From an uncultured delta proteobacterium (GTDB lineage Bacteria; Desulfobacterota; Syntrophia; Syntrophales; UBA2185), in NCBI GenBank assembly GCA_963695875.1, contig CAVOID010000007.1, positions 98,918 to 162,917 on the forward strand: a stretch of DNA of 64,000 bases. The letters are read 5' to 3'. The notes under the pieces were generated by a model. The model ran no database searches. It was not told the DNA's origin and saw only the letters and a program-made list of their open reading frames with translations. Both the position numbers and the translations under genes were made by a program. This document shows, in pieces, positions 1,640-13,520 of this stretch. Each line of letters begins with the position of its first letter. Positions within the stretch are counted from its first letter, which is position 1.

Positions 1640-1848
1640 TTGGTATGCACCCTTATCGGGCGGCTCTTCACGCGAGGGTGCTGATCATGGGCTGGCTGCT
1701 TGGACTTGCTTCAAGCACATTCGGAATTGCCGCCTCCTATAAATGGGATCTGCCGGTGGCTCCGGTCATCGTTGCTTCATTAAGTATACTTTTTTCAGTG
1801 GTTCTATTTGTCATATCAATATTCCGAAAGACCCAACAGTCGGACTGA
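1640..1848 (+). pseudogene. C-terminal remnant of a metal ABC transporter permease (ABC-3/ZnuB-like)
   Basis: GWLLGLASSTFGIAASYKWDLPVAPVIV resembles the last helices of ABC-3 permeases (G..xSY..DLP.G..IV); no N-terminal part present. Confidence 0.5.
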
Positions 1849-1937
1849 AGGATTAAAGATTGCCAGTTGTGATGTTGAATGGATGAGCTGCATCGAACGT
1901 GGGACACGACAGAAAGAAGCCGCTGAAACCCTATTTG

Positions 1938-2606
1938 TTATTTTTTCGTCATTTCCAGCAATCTGCGTCGATATAAGTAAACCAATAAATAAAAGACAGC
2001 TACGAGGCCCAAAATTATGAAAAGGACCACGATCCGCATGGTTCTGACACTATCTCCCGTCAGGGAAAGTAAAATGGTCCCGAATAACCGGCCAACGGTC
2101 GAAACAGCTATAAATATCCAGATATTCATCTGGCTTAAACCTATTATGTAACAAAGTGCGGCTTTAGGAAACCCGGGAATCAGAAAAAGAACAAAGCAAA
2201 CTAAAGGACCCCGCGCTTCTATGAAGTGATCATACCTCTCAATAATTGAAGGGTTTACGAGCCTTCTTACGAGCGGCATTCCGTATACCCGCGAGAGGAT
2301 AAAGGCTAACCATGAACCAATACTAAGACCAATTGTGGAATAGATTGTCCCGACTACGGGACCATAGAGATAGCCACCGATGAATCCGGAGATTTCGGCA
2401 GGTATTGCTCCCGCGACCAATACCTGGAAAATTTGGATAACAATGAAAACAAGATCATCATATGGATGAAAAGATTCAATGAAGGCGACCAGTTTTTGAT
2501 TATAATATGTAAAGTATGCGTAATAATGATAACTGAAGATTAGTTTAATACCGATGACCAAAAGCAATATTAGAATAAAAATCTTGATGATGAGGCGTTT
2601 ATTCAA
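1938..2606 (-). CDS. TVP38/TMEM64 (VTT/DedA-like) membrane protein
   Basis: IPAEISGFIGGYLYG...GLSIGSWLAFILSR...FLIPGFP pattern of the SNARE-associated/VTT domain. Confidence 0.85.
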   Translation of the reverse strand: MNKRLIIKIFILILLLVIGIKLIFSYHYYAYFTYYNQKLVAFIESFHPYDDLVFIVIQIFQVLVAGAIPAEISGFIGGYLYGPVVGTIYSTIGLSIGSWLAFILSRVYGMPLVRRLVNPSIIERYDHFIEARGPLVCFVLFLIPGFPKAALCYIIGLSQMNIWIFIAVSTVGRLFGTILLSLTGDSVRTMRIVVLFIILGLVAVFYLLVYLYRRRLLEMTKK

Positions 2607-2727
2607 CAGGTTTGTCCATGCATTTTGTTCATCGGATGTTCTGTCTTACAGCGACACAGTGGATAAAATAAGGGGCATGGATGAACTTTTTACTATCGAA
2701 CATGCCCCTAAACCAAACCGTATATTA

Positions 2728-2919
2728 TTATTTGTTTTCGCTTTTTTTAGCCTCTGAGGTGTCCTCCGGTATATGTTCCCGCTCATCCATGGCCTTTTTG
2801 AAACCCCTTATGGCCTTGCCGATAGAGTTCCCCAATTCAGGAAGTTTACCTGGACCAAAAATAATCAGGACGATAACCAGTATCACCAAAAGATGCATTG
2901 GTTGGAGAAGCCCACTCAT
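2728..2919 (-). CDS. tatA: Twin-arginine translocase subunit TatA/E
   Basis: N-terminal TM then [25 protein letters not shown]. Confidence 0.95.
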
Positions 2920-3050
2920 TTTTGCCTCCTATGATAGTTTGTTAGACGCTTTTATAACATTTTCCTTGCACCGTCAAACTATCATGTTTGTCAAAAGGCC
3001 TGTAAAATTTCCGCATGAAAAGACATAGTTCTGATTAATAGAAATCAATT

Positions 3051-5984
3051 CTATTCAGCAAAAGGCTTTTCAGTGGCTGCCCGGGCCGCGGCTTCGAGGA
3101 CAATTGCCACCACAGCAGCCCCATAATCAAGGTCAATGTTTGCCACCGTATCATGACTGTCATGATATCCTTTACGGCTGATGTCATAATCTTCCATGAA
3201 AAGAACTACCGGTATACCCGCATCCGAGAAAATCTGGGCGTCGGTATTATAAAGAGTACTCTTGGGATCACAAGGCAAACGAATTTCGCCATCAAGTTTC
3301 AGGTGTGACGCAATTTCCGGGACCGTCTTTCCATCGGAACTTCGTTTTCCTCGAGTACATCTGCGACGGGACGGCCTCACATTCCAAATATCAGTAGAGG
3401 CGTTCCATAGTTCGTTGGCCACATGGGCTTGATAGGCTAACCACAATGATCCCGCCCCCATTCCCGGAGATATTTGAAATTTGTCACGTTCACTGTCATT
3501 GTTATGTGCAACCATATCAAGAATAAACACGCCCTGAATTTGAACACCTGACAGATCTTTTTCTCTATCTTTTGATAAGCGTAATTTCAATGTACCCTCT
3601 ATAATCTGTTGGCAGAGATTGCGTGCCCCGAGACAGTCTGATGGAAATTCCTCGCCGGTCAAATGAATAAGCCAGATGTCGCAGCCGAGCTTTCCCTCCC
3701 GGCTGAGTTCGCAAAAGATCGGAGCGGCACGCATCAGCGCAGCGGTTGCGGAGTGGTTATCATCTGCCCCGGCCGACGCAAGACGCGCGCCGGAACCACC
3801 TTGTTCCTTATAATAAATATCTTCCATGTATGCCGTGTCATAATGATCCGCCATGATAACCGCACGATGGCGATCACGTCCTGGAATCACCATTAGGAGA
3901 TTACGTTCCTCAAGCCGTCCCAGCTGGTTATTTGCCCAACCTCCCCACCAGTCAAAGTCAAAATCAGTTTTCCATCGGAAAGGCAGGTCTCCGACTAGTG
4001 CCTTTCCCTGCATTCCGCATTCAGCGATGACCCGCCTATAGTAGGTAAGCAAGTAATTCCCAAGTCCTTCCAGGTCTCGATGATGATGCTTCAACATCCT
4101 TTGAGTAACAGTGTCCAGGATGCAGTCAGAATTGGCTTTATTCGTATATTCACCTGTCGACAGATGAAGGATATCCCTCCAATATCTCACTTCAAAAGAA
4201 CGAACAGCGGTACGGATAAAAGTCAGCGAGGACAGCAGTCTTTTTCTTCCCGAAATTGGCAGATTCGGCTTTTTGTGTTCGATCTGATCCTGCAATTGAT
4301 TGGCGAGCATTTGACCTTTTTCTTTATTGCCCGCAATCTCCGGCAAAGATTTGAGCCATGCATCAAGAGTCCTATTTTCCGGCAGCATCAATATCTGTCT
4401 TGCAAAAGTGCAAGGAAGCTTTCTATTGCCGATGAGGTCGTGCGCTTCCAACAGATTCAGCGCTCTTGTAACTGTCTTTTGCTCATGTTTTTTATCTTTG
4501 AAAAGTTCAATGACGGCCATGTGTGTGTTTCGTTCGTAAAGGCTCGGCCAGAGTTCGATTGGATTATCTAAATCAACACGCTGCTTCGCGTTATAGGCGG
4601 TAAGATATCCCATAAGAGTGTCATGTAACACGGCCGGCTTATCCGTATTGTGGGGCATGTACGCTATGAGGGGGCGATGCCAGTAGACTTGGTATGATCC
4701 TATGCACATCGGCGGATATTGAAATCTGTATCCGAACATGCCACCTCGATTGACTGACTTGACGGCAGCATCAATTTCGGCTCTGGTCGCATCTGGGCCA
4801 TCGAGCAATAGCTGATAGTCCTGAGTCCAGATCTGGCTGTTGCGCGCCATGGGCTTGCCGTACAGATCCAGGTCTTTTGGATTCGTGCTGAAAAGCACGT
4901 TGGCGATATGATCCTGACGTCCGGGAGTCGCAAGCTCATCTTCGTAACGGTGCACCTTTGCCCAGCGATGGGTTCGCCGGAAGGTACTTCTAATCGGTCC
5001 AAAATCTTCATTGGGCAAAGGATGGTCTTGCCGTGGTATATGCAGCCAACCGGATTGAGGCACACGAAGTCCATAAGGAGACTCATGACGCTCCACAAGA
5101 TTCAACAAGGGAATCTGATTGGCCATCGCTAATTCACGCTGCATTTTGATATAACCGGGGACACCCCAAAAAAGCAAGCTACCCGGGAAAGGCAACAAGT
5201 TTAGTTCCCCCGCGAAATAAGCCCTTTTCAAATCCGCTGGAAGCAATCTCGAATGGTTCAAAGTTCAAGAGATATTTAACACCTTTCAGCGACATTCCCC
5301 GACGCCAGACCAAGGGCGCTGCCCAGACTGGCCGCAGATTATTGTGTGGATCATCATCCCCAACAAAAATGCGGAAGCCGGTACGCATGGAGATCAGATA
5401 ATTTATCGAAAGGTTCGCCGTAGGCAGCATGGAGAAGCGTTCTGATGAAATCCATTGCTCTTTCTGAGGGGAGCTCACTGCCGGTGGGCATGAAAGAAAC
5501 TCTTCCAGAAAGGACGGACGGGCCCCTGTTCACTGCCGCCAAAGAATGTCCACCGTCTCCTGCCTTTGTCGTCATGGGTGAGGGAAAGAGCAAGTGGCAG
5601 AAGCAAAACGAAGCGTTCATGATTTAACGCTCCTGCCTGCTTCGCAAGCTCCGGGGGCCAGTAGGGATTATTGACTAGTTTGTTCTTGGCAAGGTGTTTA
5701 GTGGCTTCGCCGCGAGTCAGATGAACCAGAGACTCCAAAACCTGATGGGCGATATTTTCCAGCCCCGGGCGCAATTCGTAACACTCTTCAAACTCTGTGA
5801 CCGGGAAACCATAAGGGTTCTCTTCAGAGAAGAAGCCGTATGCCCTTCCACCATAAGGTCTGCAGCCCAAATGGATCGACGGCATAAACTCCGAATAAGC
5901 TGCTATCGGATATTGCCCTTGTCCTCTGAACGAACAACTTTCTATTAGATTCTTCAAACCCAGGGGTGGCATGTTATTTTTCAT
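3051..5984 (-). CDS. Large (~980 aa) M28-family metallopeptidase with long unassigned N-terminal region; about 3 apparent frameshifts
   Basis: M28 zinc motifs ADHYD, GADDNHSA, TGEE, LDMV, GYHDSHD in the C-terminal part; ORF pieces 5475-5984, 5354-5620, 5179-5478 and 3051-5261 join across single-base shifts. Confidence 0.75.
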
Positions 5985-6066
5985 GTGGCAACATTTGCAG
6001 ATTGAAACTGGATCAACCCGGCAATGGATTGAAAGATGGGCTTGCAGGTGATTCGGTTTCCTGTAT

Positions 6067-6588
6067 TTAAGTCAGTTCTTTCGAGAACACCAGCTTATCA
6101 TCACCGACTCGGTAAAAATTTTTGATACGCGCCGCCAGGTGGTAGCCGTTCTTCTCGTAAAAACGAATGGTGTCGCTATAAGTTTCCTGCGATGACGTCT
6201 CGATGAGGAGCATGCGCCCACCCCGTTTTGTTACATCACGCTCAACATACTCAAGCAAATACCGTCCATGTCCCTTCCTCTGTGCTGCCGGATCGACTAC
6301 AATCCAGTATAAATCATACACTCCCTGCGTGAGGGGAGTTGGACCATAACAGGCAAACCCATGTAACACAGGATGCTCTTTCCCGTATTCAAGCACAACA
6401 AAGATATAGTCACTCTCATCTCCCTCTTTCAGGGCGTCATCAGCCAGTTCCAGTGCGGTCTCTATCTCGACGTCGTTGAATTTACCTGATGAAACAACCA
6501 TCTCTTCGATTCGGGATCGATCGCGCGGTTCCAGCTGACGGATATGTTCCTTTCGATTCATCTGGTTTTCTTTCGTATACTGTTGCAT
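6067..6588 (-). CDS. GNAT-family N-acetyltransferase
   Basis: Acetyl-CoA motif VDPAAQRKGHG and FYEKNGY. Confidence 0.9.
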   Translation of the reverse strand: MQQYTKENQMNRKEHIRQLEPRDRSRIEEMVVSSGKFNDVEIETALELADDALKEGDESDYIFVVLEYGKEHPVLHGFACYGPTPLTQGVYDLYWIVVDPAAQRKGHGRYLLEYVERDVTKRGGRMLLIETSSQETYSDTIRFYEKNGYHLAARIKNFYRVGDDKLVFSKELT

Positions 6589-6790
6589 GCGGCTCTAGTC
6601 CTTGCGCTTATCCTCTTTTTTCACGCCCAATTTTGTTTCGAGTAAGTTTATAGCATGCAAAATTATATAAGCCTCATCTTTTGTCTGTATGTCAATTCAA
6701 GTTAAAAGAAATACCTACTAATGTTGAAGGTCGTTAGTCGATGAGTACTGCAGATAATTGGCAGAAATATATAATCGGCCGTAAACTGGC

Positions 6791-7360
6791 TCACTTCTTT
6801 TTTGCGAGCCCAGGATATAGTTTATCCTTACATTCCGGACAAATACTGTGGCTAAATTCCGCATCTGTATTATCAATAATGAAGAGCTCTATCTGCTTCC
6901 AGTCACCAGTATCGTCACGAATTTTTTTGCAGGAAGAACAAATGGGTAACAGGCCACTTAATGTTTTTATCTCATCAAGTGCCTTCTGAAGCTGGACTAT
7001 AAGTAATTTGTTATTATCCGAAATAATTTTCTCCTCAGATATCAAGTAAACAACGACTATGAAAAAGCCAAAATGGACAAAAATATTCCAAGATTCAATC
7101 AAATAATTTTGAATAACTTTTCCAGCAAAAAGATTTGCAGTCATTATCGTTGCCGTGCTGATAACCGACATAATAATTCCGGTATTTCTGTTGATAATCC
7201 AAGTTATAAGACTAATAGGTATTAAATAAAAGACTTCAATTCCTATTTGGTAACCTGTTAAATAATCTATAACACCTATAATCAAATTCAACAGAAGACC
7301 AATAACCCAAATAAATGATCGTGGCTTCTTTAAAAGATAGTCAATGAAATACATATTCAC
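6791..7360 (-). CDS. Membrane protein (about 4 TM, DUF4118-like) with C-terminal CxxC...CxxC domain
   Basis: Hydrophobic N-terminus (IDYLTG...FYLIPI), short coil, then LLPICSSCKKIRDD...FSHSICPEC. Confidence 0.75.
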   Translation of the reverse strand: MNMYFIDYLLKKPRSFIWVIGLLLNLIIGVIDYLTGYQIGIEVFYLIPISLITWIINRNTGIIMSVISTATIMTANLFAGKVIQNYLIESWNIFVHFGFFIVVVYLISEEKIISDNNKLLIVQLQKALDEIKTLSGLLPICSSCKKIRDDTGDWKQIELFIIDNTDAEFSHSICPECKDKLYPGLAKKK

Positions 7361-7611
7361 TGTTTCATTATTGCAGGTTATTACGAATTACTACTAATAA
7401 TTTCGCACACATTCCTAAATTCTTCAAATGAAGAGTTCAGGAGGTACGTGATTGGGACTGGGCCAGCGTGATCTCTTAAGAAGTGCAGCATGCGCACCTG
7501 TGCGGCATGTGAAGATTATGAAGAATCTTTTATCAATTCGGGTTTCGCCATGGACTGCCTTTTTCAAACATCAGCTCTTTATTTTTTTGCTTTCCGGAGC
7601 CTGATCCGCTA

Positions 7612-9948
7612 TCAAGAATTCATGGCAATAAGACGTCTTCCTTCCGCCGAAAGGGCCGCTTCAATATATTCAAAACCCGTAAGACAATTCCGGCGTTCAA
7701 CCACTATGACTTTTATTTGCGAGTTCTGCAGAAGCTTCATCAACTTCGGGAGATGGCGAGAACCAATCTCTGTGACAGTTGTTCCGACTTTAATGTCGTG
7801 CAGGTTAGCATATCGCACGGCCTTGGCCATCTGACGGCTTAAATCGGCTCTTTGATCTTCCAATGGCACTCTTGCATAGATGACGGCATTCTCACTTTCC
7901 TCACTGACCTTCGATGCTGTTTCCGCTCTGGCCTTGGCTTCAGCTTCTGCCTCTTCTCTTGCCTTCAACGCGGCGGCCAGCCGCTCAATTTCTTCCGCTT
8001 TAGCTCTGGCTTCTGTCTCCGCCTTGAACCTGGCTTCCTCTTCCGCCCTGAGCCTTGCCTCCACCTCCGCCTTAGCTATCGCTTCTTCCTTTGCTCTCCT
8101 TTCAGTCTCCTCCCTTGCTTTCGCCTCTTCTGTCAATCGTGCTTCTATCCGAGCCCTCACTTTAGCGTCAGCTTCTTCTCTCACCTTCAACTCGGCCATC
8201 AGCCATTCGACTTCTTCCGCCTTTAGACTGAGTTCTGACTCCGTTCTGGCCTTCGCTTCAGTTTCTGCTTCGTCTCTCACTTTCAACTCGGCCGCCAATC
8301 GGGCCACCTCACCCGCTTTAGCACTAGCTTCTATCTCTGCCTTGAGCCTGGCTTCCTCTTCCGCCCTGAGCCTAATTTCTGCCTCTAACCTGGTTCTTGC
8401 TTCTTCCTTTGCTCTCCTTTCCGCTTCTTCCCTTGTCCTCGTCTCTTCTGTCAATCGTGCTTCTATCCCAGCCCTCACATTAGCTTCTGCTTCTTCTCTT
8501 GCTTTAAACTCGGACACCAGCCGCTCGATTTCTTCCGTTTTAGTCCTGGATTCTATCTCTGCCTTGAGCCCTGGCTTTCGCTTCCTCCCTTGCCCTCGTC
8601 TCTTCTGTCAATCGTGCTTCTACCCCAGCCCTCACTTTAGTTTCCGCTTCTTCTCTTGCTTTAAGCTCGGCCGCCAGCCGCTCGACTTTTTCCGCTTTAT
8701 CCCTGGCTTCCATTTCAGCATTAAGCCTGGTTATCTCTTCCGCCCTGAGCCTGATTTCTGCCTCTTCTCTTGCCTTCAACTCGGCCGCCAATCGGGCCAC
8801 CACGTCCGCTTTAGCACTGTCCTCCATCTTTGTTCTGAGTCCGTCTTCCACTTCCGCCCTGAGCCTAGCCTCCGCCTCCGCCCTGGCTTTCGCTTCCTCC
8901 GTTGCTCTTCTTTCAGCCTGCTCCCTTGCGCTCGTTTCTTCTGCCAGCCGTGCCTCTACTTCAGCCCTTACTTTAGCTTCCGCTTCTTCCCTTGCCTTCA
9001 ACTCGGCCACCAGCCGTTCGACTTCTCCCGCTTTAGTCCATGCTTCTATCTCTGCATTAAGCCTGGTTATTTCTTCCGCCTTTAGCCTAATTTCTGTTTC
9101 TTCTTTTGCCTTCAGCTCGTCTGCCAACCGTGCTTCTACTTCAGCCCTAACTTTAGCTTCCGCTTCTTCTCTTGCCTTCAACTCGGCTACCAGGCGTTCG
9201 ACTTCTTCCGTCTTAGTTCTGGCCTCTGTCTCTGTCTGAGCCTGGCTATCGCTTCCTCCCTTGCTTTAGTCTCTTCTGCCAACCGCACTTCTACTTCAGC
9301 CCTTAATTTAGCTTCCACCTCTTCTCTTGTCTTCAACACGGCTGCCAATCGGGCTACCTCGCCCGCTTTAGCACTGGCCTCCATCTTTGTTCTGAGTCCG
9401 GCTACCTTTTCCGCCCGTGCTCTCCTTTCCGCTTCCTCCCTTGCTTTAGTCTCCTCTGCCAACCGCACTTCTACTTCAGCCCTTACTTTAGCTTCCGCTT
9501 CTCCTCTTGCCTTAAACTCGGACACCAGCCGCTCGATTTCTTCCGTTTTGGTCCTGGCTTCTATCTCTGCATTAAGCCTGGCTTCCTCTTCCGCCTTGAG
9601 CCTAATTTCTGCCTTCGCTCTAGCCTTCGCTTCCTCCGTTGCTCTCCTTTCCGCTTCCTTCCTTGCTCTCGCCTCTTCTGCCAATCGTGCTTCTACTTCA
9701 GTCCTCACTTTAGCTTCTGCTTCTTCTCTTGCTTTAAATTCGGACATCAGCCGTTCGACTTCTTCCACCTTGGTTCTGGCTTCCATCTCTGCCGTGAGCC
9801 TGGCTTCCTTTGCTGCCCATGTCTTTTTGCTCGTGACTACTTCTGTCTTTTCGTATTGAGCCGATTCAGAAATTATAACATTTAGTTCATCCAAGAGCAT
9901 TCTATCACTTAGTGGGAGCCAGTTATTGCATGTATCCGTTTTTAACAT
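7612..9948 (-). CDS. ~780-aa E/A/R/K repeat (SAH/coiled-coil) protein fused to an inactivated IS607-type serine recombinase core; two compensating frameshifts
   Basis: ORFs 9187-9948, 8540-9181 and 7612-8517 share the repeat; a missing A near 9237 and an extra G near 8570 account for the frame breaks; C-terminus VIYARVP..DQRADLSRQ..VTEIGS..KLMKLL..IVVERRNCL.GFEYIEAALSAEGR. Confidence 0.75.
7900..9810 (-). repeat. Intragenic imperfect tandem repeat, full unit about 75 aa / 225 nt with modular deletions
   Basis: Recurring ELKAREEAEAKVRAEVEARLAEETKAREEAERRA..EEA.AR..AE.RL.AEEEARL.AEIEARTK.EE.ERL at protein and DNA level. Confidence 0.9.
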
Positions 9949-10021
9949 ATATTTCCCTTCTTTAATTCAGCTTTTAACCCTTTAATCATACAGGTTATGA
10001 CTTTACATAGGTTAACAGTAT

Positions 10022-10055
10022 AAAAAACCCCGCACTCTTCTGAGAAACGGGGTTT
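10022..10055 (-). terminator. Rho-independent terminator in the leader of the repeat-protein gene
   Basis: Minus strand aaaccccg-tttctcagaagagtg-cggggtttttt: GC stem plus U-tract, about 75 nt upstream of the ATG at 9948. Confidence 0.65.
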
Positions 10056-10311: not shown

Positions 10312-10969
10312 TTATTTTTGTGAAAAGACGACATCCTCCGTCAATTGGTTCCCGGAATACAAACCCATCCTGTAAATATAATCCATGACAACTTTTGGGA
10401 CCATATTGTCTATTGATTGATCTGTTTTTATCCTATGCCGTATGTCCGTGGAAGAGATAGATAGCGCCGGTTCTTCAATGATGGTTACATATGGCCGGAA
10501 ATCATCGGGAATTCTTTCTTCTATCTCCTTTCTCTGATAGCCCGGTCTAGTGGCAGCAATAAAATTACAGAGGCCGGGATATGTTTTCGATTTATCCCAG
10601 TTAATGATTGTCAATACGGCATCTAACCCGGTTATGAAATAAATTTCACTGTCTTTGCCATACATTTCTTTAAATGCGCTGATAGTGTCACCGGCATAAG
10701 TCGGGCAGTTACATCCCATCTCGATTTTCGACGCTTCAAAGTAAGAATTTCCCGCAATCGCTGCACTGACCATAGCAAAACGATGCTCTGCTGCTGTTAT
10801 GTCATTCATTGATTTATGGGGAGGACAGTAGGCAGGGACAAAGACAACCTTCTCCAGGTCAAATTTCGATCTGACAAATTCGGCTACTGCAAGATGACCG
10901 AAATGAATGGGATCAAAGGTGCCTCCCATGATGCCGAGCTTGCGATATATTTTTTTTCTCCAGTTCCAT
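10312..10969 (-). CDS. nadD: Nicotinate-nucleotide adenylyltransferase
   Basis: GGTFDPIHFGH, PPHK, GLDA and ISSTDIR motifs; likely start MELEKKIYRKLGIMGG at 10969 with one extra A in an A8 run. Confidence 0.92.
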
Positions 10970-12032
10970 CACAGCCTCAGATCAGACAGATCCACCTTGT
11001 CAATACTATCCGGCTGCCATCTTGGTTGATTGTCCTTGTCGATAAGGCGGGCCCGAATGCCCTCACGAAAGTCCGGATGCCTGATGATAAACTGCATGGC
11101 CATGAAGTCTGCCTCATAAACCTTATTCATGGGAAGATGTTCATTATGACGCAACAGCTTCAAGGTTAAGGCCAACGCTGTCGGAGACCTTTCTGAAAGT
11201 CCCGATGTGATGCCATCACAGGGTGAAAGCAGGATAGGCACACATGAAGAGAATCGATGATCTCCTGCAAGGATGTTTGTCCCGCAAAATATTTCTTCAC
11301 CCATATATCTATATCCGGTTTTGGTACGATATTTCTATCAAAATAGAATTTGATTCTCCTCATCAGCCGGGGCAATATCTCTTTGGAGCTTGAAATTTCC
11401 TTTGTCTTGAATGTCTCGATAGCTTGTATCAGGTCATTAACCTTTTTCGAATGTGTCAAATGCGTAGCGAAACCCACACGGACACACTCGCTTCCCTTCA
11501 TCTCAAAACTTGTGAGTCCCAGATATTCCGGATAGCCCGGCGGACATTTGCTGTACATCCATCCCGTTGCACCCACATCGGGAAAGAATCCTATCCTCGT
11601 TTCCGGCATGGCCATGCGGGTTCTTTCTGTTGCAACCACCCAGTCGGCGCCTGATGCAATGCCAAGCCCGCCGCCCATTGTAATGCCGTCGGCGATTACA
11701 ATCACCGGTTTGGGGAATTGATGAATCACCAGATCAAGGGTGTATTCCTCCAGAAAAAACTGATTTATCTCCTCCATGTTGTCGTTCTGAATACACCAGG
11801 CTACACGCTTTATATCACCGCCGGCGCAGAATGCCATCTCACCCAGACCGTAAAAAAGAATCAACTTGCATTCATCATCCGTGAGTGCCTCATTCAAATA
11901 CCTGGTAATAAGGCGGATCATTTCAAGGTTGAGACTGTTCAATGCCTCTTTTCGATTTAGAATAATCGACATACCTGCGCTTGTACGACGCATTATTACA
12001 GAGGACTTTTCTGAGTCATGGTTATTCGTCAT
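10969..12032 (-). CDS. Enoyl-CoA hydratase/isomerase family, 3-hydroxyisobutyryl-CoA hydrolase-like; frameshifted
   Basis: LNRKEALNSL, AFCAGGDIK, GITMGGGLG, MPETRIGFFPDVG; C-terminal DFREGIRARLIDKDNQPRW lies in another frame. Confidence 0.88.
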
Positions 12033-12213: not shown

Positions 12214-13520
12214 ATGGAAACACAACTTGATCCCAAACTTCCGCTTTTGCAGAATGCCGACGTGGAGAATAAAATAGTCCTTTTGCGCGTTGACCATAAT
12301 GTGGTCAAGAAAGGAGCCATCGAAGACCCGTTCAGAATAGATCAAACCATTGGAACTATCTTCAATATCGTTGAAAGGGGCGGCAGACCGATCATTATGA
12401 CGCATATCGGAAGGCCGCGAGACAAGACAGGCAAAATTAAAGTAGACAAATCGACCTCGGTTGAACCCATTGCGGAATATCTGGAGCGTAAGCTTCATAC
12501 AAAGATCTACTGTCCCACATTCAGGCCGGAAGGTGATGAAGGAATAAAAAGCGTCGACACCTCGATAAATCTTGCCGTAAAGAATCTGAAAGAAAAAAGG
12601 ATCGGCGCCATATACCTCCCGAATACGAGATGGTTCACGGGAGAAGAATCGAAAACGGAGTACAGCGACTGACTTTGGCACGCCAATTGGCAGGCCTGGC
12701 CGATGTCTTCGTTAACGATGCGTTCGGCTCCTGGCAGCCGCATGTCTCCACCTATCACATCACGAAGTATCTCCCGTCGTTTGCGGGATATCTCATGCAA
12801 AAGGAAATACAGAATCTTTCGCAGGTTCTGCAACCCGAAAGGCCGTTCATCTCTGTCGTGGCAGGCGCAAAGTACAATACGAAGATCGGACCTCTCAATG
12901 AAATCTATAAGAAAGTGGATAAATTGATCCTCGGCGGGATCATTTACAATACCTACCTGTGTGCAAAATATGATGTCTCAATCAGCGGTATCGAACAGGA
13001 AGATATCGAAGCCGCCGGTAATCTTGTCGAGATGGACAAGGAACAGCACAAGATACTGGAACTTCCATATGTGTATGAATCGGATACCATGGAAGGGAAG
13101 ATTGAGGGAAAATACAGGATCAGGTCGATAAAGGAATTCAAAAAAGGCGCGAAACTTCCTTATATTCTGGATATTGCAAAAGAATCGTTCGAAGATCCGG
13201 AGATATCGGAAGCTCTGAACTCGGCAAGAACCATTTTTGTTAATGCCGTCATGGGATATACGCCGTATTTTACCGAAGGCTCTGCGGCCCTGGACAGCAA
13301 AATCGATCAGAATGCAGCGGCAAATAAGCTCTATGGAGGCGGGGATACGCTTCAGGAATTTAAAAATCTGTGCCCCGGTCTTTATCTATCGACACTTGAT
13401 AATTCGAAATACTATTTCTTCACGGGCGGCGGTACGGTGTTAAAGGCCATTGAGGAAGGTACACCATACGGTCTTGAGGCGGTGAAAGCGCTCATCGATA
13501 ACGGCGGAAAATCTCCGTAA
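12214..13520 (+). CDS. pgk: Phosphoglycerate kinase; one apparent frameshift near 12668
   Basis: LRVDHNV, THIGRP, FVNDAFG, GGGDT, FTGGG motifs across two ORFs. Confidence 0.92.

Follow-up and report, generated by a model that had tools for sequence, protein, structure and literature searches.

IS607-type transposases (TnpA) and charged single alpha helices are among the described systems closest to the gene considered here. According to the structural study of two such transposases, the catalytic cores of IS1535 and ISC1926 TnpA dimerize through helices B and D across a flat, hydrophobic interface of 924–961 Å2, whereas helix E forms a separate bundle; the nucleophile is Ser59 in IS1535 numbering, and the interdomain linker measures 3–11 residues (PMC6188088). 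Single alpha helices (SAHs), for their part, are stabilized by opposite charges spaced at i and i+4 and serve as spacers between functional end domains. The gene appears to combine both, joining a transposase domain that has been exapted to a charged helical spacer. It lies on the minus strand, at positions 7612–9948 of a 64,000-nucleotide stretch (the window) of contig CAVOID010000007.1 from an uncultured member of the Syntrophales, whose assembly comprises 16 contigs and 2.86 Mb and is 82.6% complete. The analysis shows a single gene, whose product, a cytoplasmic protein of ~778 residues, has a conserved N-terminal motif (N-motif) followed by a long rod of charged repeats and by an exapted, catalytically dead TnpA core. 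We think it probable, if by no means certain, that this core is a dimerizing head on a long spacer or tether.

The last 101 residues of the product match the NCBIfam model of IS607 transposases (NF033518) with an expect value (E) of 2.2e-18 (66.5 bits, model positions 51–152 of 187, below the curated cut-off of 110 bits), the Pfam Resolvase model PF00239 with E 2.1e-5 (25.1 bits, cut-off 23.3), and the IS1535 TnpA catalytic domain of Protein Data Bank entry 6dgb with E 4.7e-17. The predicted fold agrees with these matches. An AlphaFold2 model of the segment, calculated from an alignment of 111 sequences, reaches a predicted local distance difference test score (pLDDT) of 87.2 and a predicted template modeling score (pTM) of 0.79, with strands at residues 11–17, 44–51, 70–74 and 95–99 and helices at 20–39, 57–64 and 82–91, and the top Foldseek match is 6dgb_A (TM score 0.81, root-mean-square deviation 1.5 Å), further matches being 6dgc, 3lhk, 3lhf and 3ilx, all of them IS607-type cores. 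The assignment of the C-terminal domain to the serine recombinases of the IS607 type, made in a first-pass annotation from the letters of the window, is thus borne out by sequence and by fold.

The inactivating changes that it had listed are likewise all visible in the alignment with IS607 TnpAs. A proline, encoded by CCA at 7866–7864, takes the place of the nucleophilic serine and aligns with the first serine of the VSS motif in all seven family sequences; NC replaces DR, three residues are missing from the GSGLNG loop and two at RF, so that every orthologue reads ERRNCLT--G and GS---R[HY]LP where TnpAs have EHRDRLxRF and GSGLNG..RP. In resolvases the DR pair, the neighboring arginine and the GSGLNG..RP loop have catalytic roles. 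Translation ends with GRRLIAMNS in the window and in the orthologous loci L002 and L005 (with GRRLIAINPR in L003), so that the stop codon lies just past β4 and the helix E region is not reached. The protein keeps Arg16, which is the R of YARV, as well as the DQ..DL.RQ motif, and helices B (PKLMKLL) and D (FEYIEAALSA), which are the part best conserved with active TnpAs, are nearly as in these enzymes.

The absence of the helix-turn-helix (HTH), of the C-terminal helix and of a nearby tnpB, also claimed at first pass, agrees with the searches: tblastn with four TnpAs detected no HTH or helix E remnant between 6001 and 10500 (best E outside the domain, 0.24), and the TnpB zinc-ribbon PF07282 has no match in the 82.6% complete assembly. 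The core is present in a single copy in the genome, and the only other NF033518 match there is a 217-residue small serine recombinase on contig C9 (L048 1507..2160, +). This recombinase is an ordinary one, with its serine intact and a C-terminal HTH; no third gene of the resolvase type was found in the assembly. With proline for serine, NC for DR, and neither helix E, HTH nor TnpB, the core is homologous to IS607 TnpA but retains none of the functional marks of that family and, judging from these residues, should no longer be able to cut DNA. The ESM Atlas gave no usable match to it. A 2416-residue library protein (P0053) contains six separate core-like stretches (24% identity, E 3.9e-9) and may be a multi-copy resolvase-like repeat protein.

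The fusion is not peculiar to the window. A scan of 1.84 billion representative proteins returned a single cluster above 54% identity, a 150-residue fragment that is 96% identical and shows the same repeat-domain junction; the other 256 matches at E ≤ 0.001 are ordinary TnpA-like proteins. Among the 32 loci obtained from a metagenome scan, four (L002–L005) are relatives at 78–95% identity and 28 lie at ≤56%. Unbroken open reading frames (ORFs) of 711, 811 and 900 residues were found in L002, L003 and L005, respectively, L003 being the same locus as that of genome G002, and the fragments L004, P0001, P0010 and P0160 contain the junction wherever they cover it. One of 60 relatives' genomes has the domain, namely G002, of the same genus, where it stands at the end of a stop-free open frame of 841 residues, and a search for dead-core patterns among species representatives matched in G002 only. 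The serine-to-proline change, the NC pair and both deletions are common to all orthologues that cover the core; none of five sequences has a stop or frameshift within it, and the stop codon has the same position in the window, L002, L003 and L005.

The N-motif, MxKTDTxxNWxPLSDRxLxxELNxIIxExAQxEK, is conserved as well, with 23 of 36 columns invariant in four orthologues. Out of 301 genomes from the order, 3 were found to have it, and these belong to a single genus (g1). The N-terminal 36–53 residues match nothing in Pfam at E ≤ 10, and a search for N-motif proteins of 85–2000 residues yielded four candidates, none of which passed, a result that counts as weak evidence. Descent of the N-motif from a diverged TnpA HTH was considered and found no support, hhalign giving a probability of 0.1 against the TnpA alignment and Pfam no match. 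Among its best 8000 candidates, a search with full-length L002 gave composition-driven matches only, at E 1e-18 or weaker; the orthologues are absent from them, and the search says nothing on distribution.

Selection was estimated for the core by the Nei–Gojobori method (NG86) from 88 codons in five sequences. The ratio of nonsynonymous to synonymous substitution rates (dN/dS) is 0.09–0.22 in all ten pairs, at dS of 0.16–0.63; the N-motif gives 0.08–0.18 in six pairs and, for comparison, nadD gives 0.218 between the window and L002. The 88 core codon columns divide into 30 identical, 32 with synonymous changes only and 26 with residue changes. Even the proline codon varies synonymously (CCA in four sequences, CCG in L003 and in contigs of three public sequencing runs), as does that of Asn77 (AAT or AAC), and P18, N77, C78 and the stretch 81–98 are invariant in the five sequences. 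As far as sequence comparison reaches, these data show a real and conserved fusion, a family confined to one Syntrophales genus and a core under purifying selection; the first-pass expectation that homologues would carry the fusion together with the S-to-P change, and that the domain would not evolve neutrally, has held. They also bear on the idea of a chance read-through from a repeat gene into an IS607 element in decay, the domain being a translated fossil with no role. The losses of catalytic residues, helix E and HTH resemble those of a decaying insertion sequence, and the family is narrow, represented in one of the 60 relatives and in one other genome among the species representatives scanned. 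Yet the low dN/dS ratios, the invariance of the very residues that inactivate the core, its freedom from stops and frameshifts, the kept stop position and a fold predicted at a pLDDT of 87 all contradict it, and dS values of 0.3–0.6 exclude that the orthologues are one recent clone. We therefore reject this explanation, whose probability we regard as negligible.

In the window itself the gene is divided into three ORFs, whose open frames overlap at both junctions (9190–9265 and 8543–8607). Adding one base near 9236 and removing one at 8569–8571 restores a single frame of 2337 nucleotides or 778 residues, as the earlier joining of the ORFs through one missing and one extra base had implied; outside the two indels there are no stops in all three frames across 2.3 kb. 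The first ~48 residues of the product are a unique segment preceding the repeats, and its C-terminal part reads ...AVIYARVPLEDQRADLSRQ...GFEYIEAALSAEGRRLIAMNS, within the unbroken third ORF, which places the junction of repeat and domain inside one uninterrupted frame, again as described at first pass. The Pro-free repeat of ~630 residues and the N-terminus devoid of signal peptide or transmembrane segment, both part of the same description, are matched by rods with 0–2 prolines and ~70% of E, A, R and K in the orthologues and by a 35-residue motif in which neither feature is visible. Coding on the opposite strand was also considered and rejected: plus-strand ORFs at 7880..9085 (401 residues) and 7490..7834 (114 residues) mirror the repeats or the domain and are broken differently in L002, L003 and L005, and the pattern at synonymous sites fits the minus-strand frame.

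The two frame breaks were compared with contigs of four public runs (X1–X4) aligned to the stretch. At the first break, a contig of X4 contains an additional letter behind 9236 (depth 4.8 of 4.8), and L002 is also one base longer there in the blastn alignment. At the second, X2 and X3 are each represented by one contig, which lacks a letter at 8569 throughout its depth (5.19 and 5.21, respectively). The contigs of X2–X4 show five to seven further differences from the window over 159–245 aligned bases, and thus come from close relatives, not necessarily from the window strain. In addition, two neighboring genes are split by single-base indels relative to L002, pgk (12214..13520, +; 152 + 296 residues, versus 434 intact in L002) and the gene of an enoyl-CoA hydratase (10969..12032, −; 288 + 111 residues, versus 354), which suggests that the window assembly is prone to indels. 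Since relatives' contigs lack the breaks and these genes are split too, both indels in the rod gene are, in our judgment, likely to be assembly errors. Two points weigh on the other side: X1, the best-matching and likely source run, has zero depth at both sites, and the depth of X4 is slightly below the caution line of 5. No public RNA run containing the stretch was found. The question raised at first pass, whether reads would reveal the frameshifts to be real, is accordingly answered in part, by relatives' contigs that are unbroken and by split housekeeping genes, as the X1 reads do not span the sites. A strain-specific pseudogene is possible: the family would be functional and the window copy genuinely broken, yielding a 253-residue N-terminal product or nothing. 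Apart from the presence of both indels in the given assembly and the missing depth in X1, this reading can appeal to a third species of the genus (G001), whose decayed remnant implies that gene loss occurs there. We consider it rather unlikely, given that neither indel is seen in the X2, X3 and X4 contigs or in L002, that pgk, the hydratase gene and a further rod gene on contig C3 of the same assembly are broken in a like manner, and that the three frames are otherwise free of stops.

The rod measures 563–752 residues in the three intact orthologues, and its DNA repeats with periods of 155–180 and 318–335 nucleotides at 70–85% matches. It consists of Glu (23–26%), Ala (22–24%), Arg (12–13%) and Lys (10–11%), with 26–27% E+D, 22–23% K+R and 19–20% larger hydrophobics (Leu/Ile/Val/Met/Phe), and has a net charge of −18 to −30. 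In L002, opposite-charge pairs number 95 (Glu to Lys/Arg) plus 96 (Lys/Arg to Glu) at i+4, and 23 plus 39 at i+3. Fourier analysis of the three orthologues against 300 shuffles gives an apolar/polar period of exactly 2.0 (z 94–187 with Ala counted) and a charge period of 7.5 residues (z 25–44), whereas hydrophobic periods of 3.5, 3.6 and 3.67 stay below z 2.5 in all three, with no peak at 3.5 or 2.33. The charge periodicity of SAHs ranges from about 6 to 9 residues. The alternation of apolar (mostly Ala, Val and Leu) and charged residues holds one register over 560–750 residues, L003 and L005 never switching and L002 doing so once; apolar residues make up 68–73% of one parity and 15–20% of the other in the orthologues, and 71% and 12–15% in the three rod pieces of the window (w1–w3).

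The same rod is found with other ends. In the same genome (G000), contig C11 encodes a protein of 600 residues with N-terminal MORN repeats followed by the rod (L041 658..2460, −), and contig C3 a MORN-rod-MORN gene present as two overlapping ORFs (L046 463..1788 and 1652..2410, −), probably split by a further assembly frameshift; both rods show single-register alternation and a charge period of 7.7. Among the family's 21 other genomes, MORN-rod genes were found in 20, covering all seven genera, with open frames of up to 1212 residues, and these relatives (including L050–L054) have the same single-register alternation, with charge periods of 7.7–7.8. A strict single-register apolar/charged rod with a charge period of 7.5 residues, shared with family-wide MORN proteins, is the new element in these observations.

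When charges follow a two-residue lattice in --++ blocks, each of them faces one of opposite sign at i+4, and the apolar positions are spread around the helix without a seam, which favors an SAH-type rod over a canonical coiled coil; we infer that the rod is not a coiled coil, and we lean toward a segmented single helix acting as a spacer. The AlphaFold2 model of full-length L002, based on a six-row alignment, divides the rod into four helices (13–160, 170–289, 301–418 and 444–609), predicted to be 118–166 residues long each and split at Gly-containing hinges. Because of these hinges, the length of 90–100 nm proposed at first pass is to be taken as an upper bound for the fully extended molecule. 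Of the scaffold, cytoskeletal or nucleoid roles proposed with it, the last is disfavored, since a rod of net negative charge is not expected to bind DNA or act in the nucleoid, and the former two stay conjectural.

Some features fit a single helix less well. The L002 model has low confidence (pLDDT 65.9, pTM 0.23), the ~19% of Leu, Ile, Val, Met and Phe exceeds that of classical ER/K helices, and strict polar/apolar alternation is also the pattern of β-forming peptides such as EAK16. The rod might instead self-associate, as EAK16-type β fibers or as laterally packed helices, into a filament or gel that would include the MORN-ended relatives and be cross-linked by the TnpA core. Such an assembly could draw on the persistent register, on the larger hydrophobics and on charge periods of 7.5–7.8, near the eight-residue period of AEAEAKAK; EAK16, which derives from a yeast zuotin repeat, is reported to form β-sheet scaffolds (PMC7889856, PMC2387071). 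AlphaFold2 nevertheless predicts helices, and an i/i+4 pattern of opposite charges is one that stabilizes single helices. Moreover, Ala, Glu, Arg and Lys all favor the helical state strongly, and in native zuotin the segment in question forms a helix. We regard self-association as distinctly improbable and retain the single-helix spacer.

Indications of how the fusion arose come from the third species, G001. Its contig C436 has an ORF of 79 residues (L038 1390..1629, −) without a rod, in which a diverged N-motif is followed by LDKKTLATNE and then directly by the start of the TnpA core. Here one frame reads NTVIYSQVSS and the neighboring frame EDHKADINGQISML, which together give VIY..VSS.D.KAD...Q, with the Ser-Ser pair intact and the frame broken; the remaining TnpA core was not detectable at this remnant. 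At both serine positions the remnant agrees with the TnpA consensus, whereas the rod-bearing genes have P[LM], and on this account G001 is read as keeping the older state; the remnant may be an ancestral or a decayed form of the rod gene. Its neighbors are a pilin-like (N_methyl) gene on one side and a gene with a HAMP domain on the other. In a possible sequence of events, N-part and core would already have been joined through a short linker, as in TnpA, the rod would then have been inserted or expanded in this TnpA-like linker, possibly from a MORN-rod paralogue, and the active site would have been lost after the gain of the rod. The suggested order, with rod gain preceding the loss of chemistry, rests on this one remnant.

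As for the function of the core, a published truncation offers a parallel. TnpA cut at the end of β4 is reported to be defective in paired-end complexes (only traces at very high protein concentration) while still forming DNA complex 1 (PMC6188088), and the dead core ends at the same point. Prediction of a two-copy complex gave a median score of 0.47 over three runs, versus 0.00 for the best control, with agreement of the runs in 100% of contacts and a partner pLDDT of 82. Of 30 solved homo-pairs 20 attain the mark used for homodimers, as does 1 of 23 single chains, a calibration that applies only roughly here, the alignment for the core being self-made. The predicted contacts involve residues 55–66 and 79–94 of the 101-residue query, corresponding to helices B (57–64) and D (82–91).

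These predictions have to be set against three considerations. Like dimers have already been solved, so that the pass may reflect the memory of the model and indicates likeness rather than binding; Phe126 of IS1535, reported to be crosslinked at the core interface (PMC6188088), falls in the RF pair deleted here; and the interface residues are not enriched in invariant positions (16 of 21, versus 47 of 68 elsewhere). On balance, we give a B/D homodimerization knob, as modeled, just about an even chance. The reuse of a transposase fold as an oligomerization head, the central suggestion of the first-pass annotation, is in this sense backed by selection on the core and, as regards oligomerization itself, by models that reproduce the TnpA interface.

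The same interface could serve a different purpose. If the dead core used its B/D interface to pair with active IS607 TnpA, it would be a dominant-negative regulator poisoning transposition; truncated transposase inhibitors exist for other elements, the B and D helices are those best conserved with active TnpAs, and the predicted interface is theirs. Potential targets, however, were not found: with NF033518, the own genome has no IS607 TnpA, only the dead core and the contig C9 recombinase, no TnpB was found, and a search of the 60 relatives with the core sequence gave only the G002 orthologue, although TnpAs, at ≤54% identity, may have escaped it. A rod of 630 residues and a conserved N-motif would also be unneeded, and we hold this role to be very improbable. 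Alternatively, the head may not homodimerize, binding instead another protein or nucleic acid via the former active-site face. P18, N77 and C78, located at that site, are invariant, Arg16 and the DQ..DL.RQ motif are retained, and the loss of helix E would expose a face that is covered by the E bundle in TnpA (PMC6188088). A partner of this kind is unlikely in our view, considering that no partner gene is conserved next to the rod gene, that TnpA does not bind DNA by means of its core alone (PMC6188088), that the rod is net negative (−18 to −30) and that the homodimer model passes.

All together, these observations allow us to outline a model for the complete protein. The core would act as a homodimerization knob through its B/D interface, and the rod as a spacer of the single-alpha-helix type segmented by few Gly hinges, so that the molecule would form a two-armed tether or spacer of up to ~2 × 90 nm, whose distal N-terminal motifs would bind a partner. 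That the N-motif is the cargo or anchor end, as a two-armed tether requires, we put at somewhat less than even. A broader proposal, an undescribed class of helical rod proteins, hundreds of residues long and on a strict two-residue lattice with --++ blocks, which would be length-setting tethers with exchangeable adaptors (MORN repeats or, in one genus, a TnpA captured whole, whose linker between DNA-binding domain and core gave way to the rod and whose chemistry was erased), is doubtful for the time being.

Should this proposal be correct, an IS607 TnpA core would for the first time be seen exapted to a purely structural use, as a dimerization module with only the B/D interface kept. In the accessible portion of the literature on domesticated or inactive serine recombinases and on IS607 TnpA, no exapted IS607 TnpA core was found, and in the sources consulted the domestication of prokaryotic transposon proteins has so far been documented mainly for RNA-guided TnpB/IscB nucleases. 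In the present gene, fold and interface seem to be what a serine transposase core was retained for, all catalytic elements having been lost, with clean evidence of selection and with a possible intermediate surviving in a sister species. The rod, for its part, is an extreme case of natural binary patterning, in one register for up to ~750 residues and conserved across the family; it could be used to examine what separates single helices, coiled coils and β-forming alternating sequences, could supply long, rigid, genetically encoded spacers, and could provide a lead to the cell architecture of syntrophic anaerobes that live in peat and sediments. The TnpA-headed gene is limited to a narrow and uncultured host range (peat and sediment bacteria).

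The features of the locus are collected in Table 1. The hairpin and T run behind the nadD-like gene make it probable, from their arrangement, that the rod gene starts its own transcript. The terminator scan did not list this hairpin, whose loop exceeds 8 nucleotides, and the counts of the terminator and promoter scan were not above those of shuffled sequence. Positions 10024–10055 alone are matched by several contigs of all four public runs, with unrelated flanks on both sides, and may be a repeated terminator or a repetitive extragenic palindrome-like element common to several organisms. The surroundings of the gene in L002 are those of the window (enoyl-CoA hydratase, nadD, then the gene; flanks ~92–93% identical in nucleotides). 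Elsewhere they change, from nadD and a block with GNAT and membrane-protein genes in the window to nitroreductase and TRAP-T genes in L003 and Cache and histidine kinase genes in L005, and no operon partner is conserved among the window, L003, L005 and G001 neighborhoods. Since neighborhoods differ between species, the context gives no functional clue, which does not help the tether model. A block of ~5.8 kb between the rod gene and a cupin gene (1650–7440 of the window) is absent from the otherwise syntenic L002; it contains a VTT/DedA-like gene, an M28 peptidase-domain protein, an ORF of 169 residues, a GNAT acetyltransferase and a membrane protein of 189 residues that has a C-terminal CxxC...CxxC motif and no Pfam match.

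Table 1. Features of the rod gene and its upstream region in the window (aa, amino acids; nt, nucleotides)
Feature	Position	Strand	Details
ORF 1 of rod gene	9948..9187	−	253 aa; stop-to-stop frame 259 aa
ORF 2 of rod gene	9181..8540	−	213 aa; stop-to-stop frame 241 aa
ORF 3 of rod gene	8517..7612	−	301 aa; stop-to-stop frame 331 aa
Conserved N-terminal motif of 35 aa with its start codon (ATG at 9948)	9844..9948	−	no signal peptide or transmembrane segment visible
Rod, ~640 aa, Pro-free E/A/R/K repeats	7924..9843	−	predicted helical
Short non-repeat linker ETASKVSEESEN between rod and core	7888..7923	−	domain-model residues 1–6 at pLDDT <50
Dead IS607 TnpA catalytic core, 91 aa, β1 to β4 with helices A, B and D	7615..7887	−	stop codon 7612–7614
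Frame break 1, one base missing versus repeat consensus and versus relative's contig	9236..9237	−
Frame break 2, extra G in minus-strand GGG run	8569..8571	−
Purine-rich stretch resembling a ribosome-binding site, AAGAAGGGA, 5–14 nt 5' of ATG	9954..9963	−	by eye only
G+C-rich hairpin followed by T run, 3' of nadD-like gene	10022..10055	−	by eye only

Compared with the IS607 TnpAs of IS1535 (6DGB) and ISC1926 (6DGC), the core has the fold in common at a sequence identity of 43–54%, follows an N-terminal part as it does in those proteins, and keeps helices B and D, which form the published dimer interface. It differs from them in lacking the serine, the DR pair, the GLN and RF segments, the helix E region and the winged-helix DNA-binding domain, in having neither a tnpB nor further copies of the insertion sequence, and in standing at the end of a ~630-residue rod in a chromosomal gene under purifying selection.

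The rod resembles SAH or ER/K helices (myosin VI and X, INCENP, the KER region of CAF-1) in its high content of E, R and K, its dense i/i+4 pairs, its long predicted helices and the absence of a heptad seam and of proline. Unlike in SAHs, every second residue is apolar (Ala ~23%, larger hydrophobics ~19%) in one register over hundreds of residues, for which we know of no counterpart among described SAHs, and at 560–750 residues the rod is several times longer than characterized examples; the KER helix, moreover, binds DNA, whereas the rod is net negative. Canonical coiled-coil and intermediate filament-like bacterial proteins have a heptad a/d repeat that is not present in the rod, where the dominant period is 2.0. 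With domain II of TolA there is a weak, composition-driven match confined to the repeats (TIGR02794, E 1.2e-7, 31.4 bits versus a cut-off of 59.45), but the rod protein has neither the N-terminal membrane anchor nor the C-terminal domain III of TolA, and other A/E/K-rich linkers (AsmA-like and others) match at E 1e-18 or weaker, in the repeats only and below curated cut-offs. EAK16 and the zuotin (AEAEAKAK)n repeat share the alternation of Ala-type and charged residues, the --++ blocks and a period of ~8, although the rod is natural, 35–45 times longer, predicted helical, and uses Arg besides Lys and Val and Leu besides Ala. A likeness in the rod itself is that of the MORN-rod proteins (G000, G001, G002 and 18 further genomes), whose rods are 50–62% identical to the TnpA-headed one; their ends are MORN repeats (PF02493, E 6.6e-16 to 2.3e-52) instead of the N-motif and the dead core, and their genes are spread throughout the family, whereas no genus but g1 was found to have the TnpA-headed gene.

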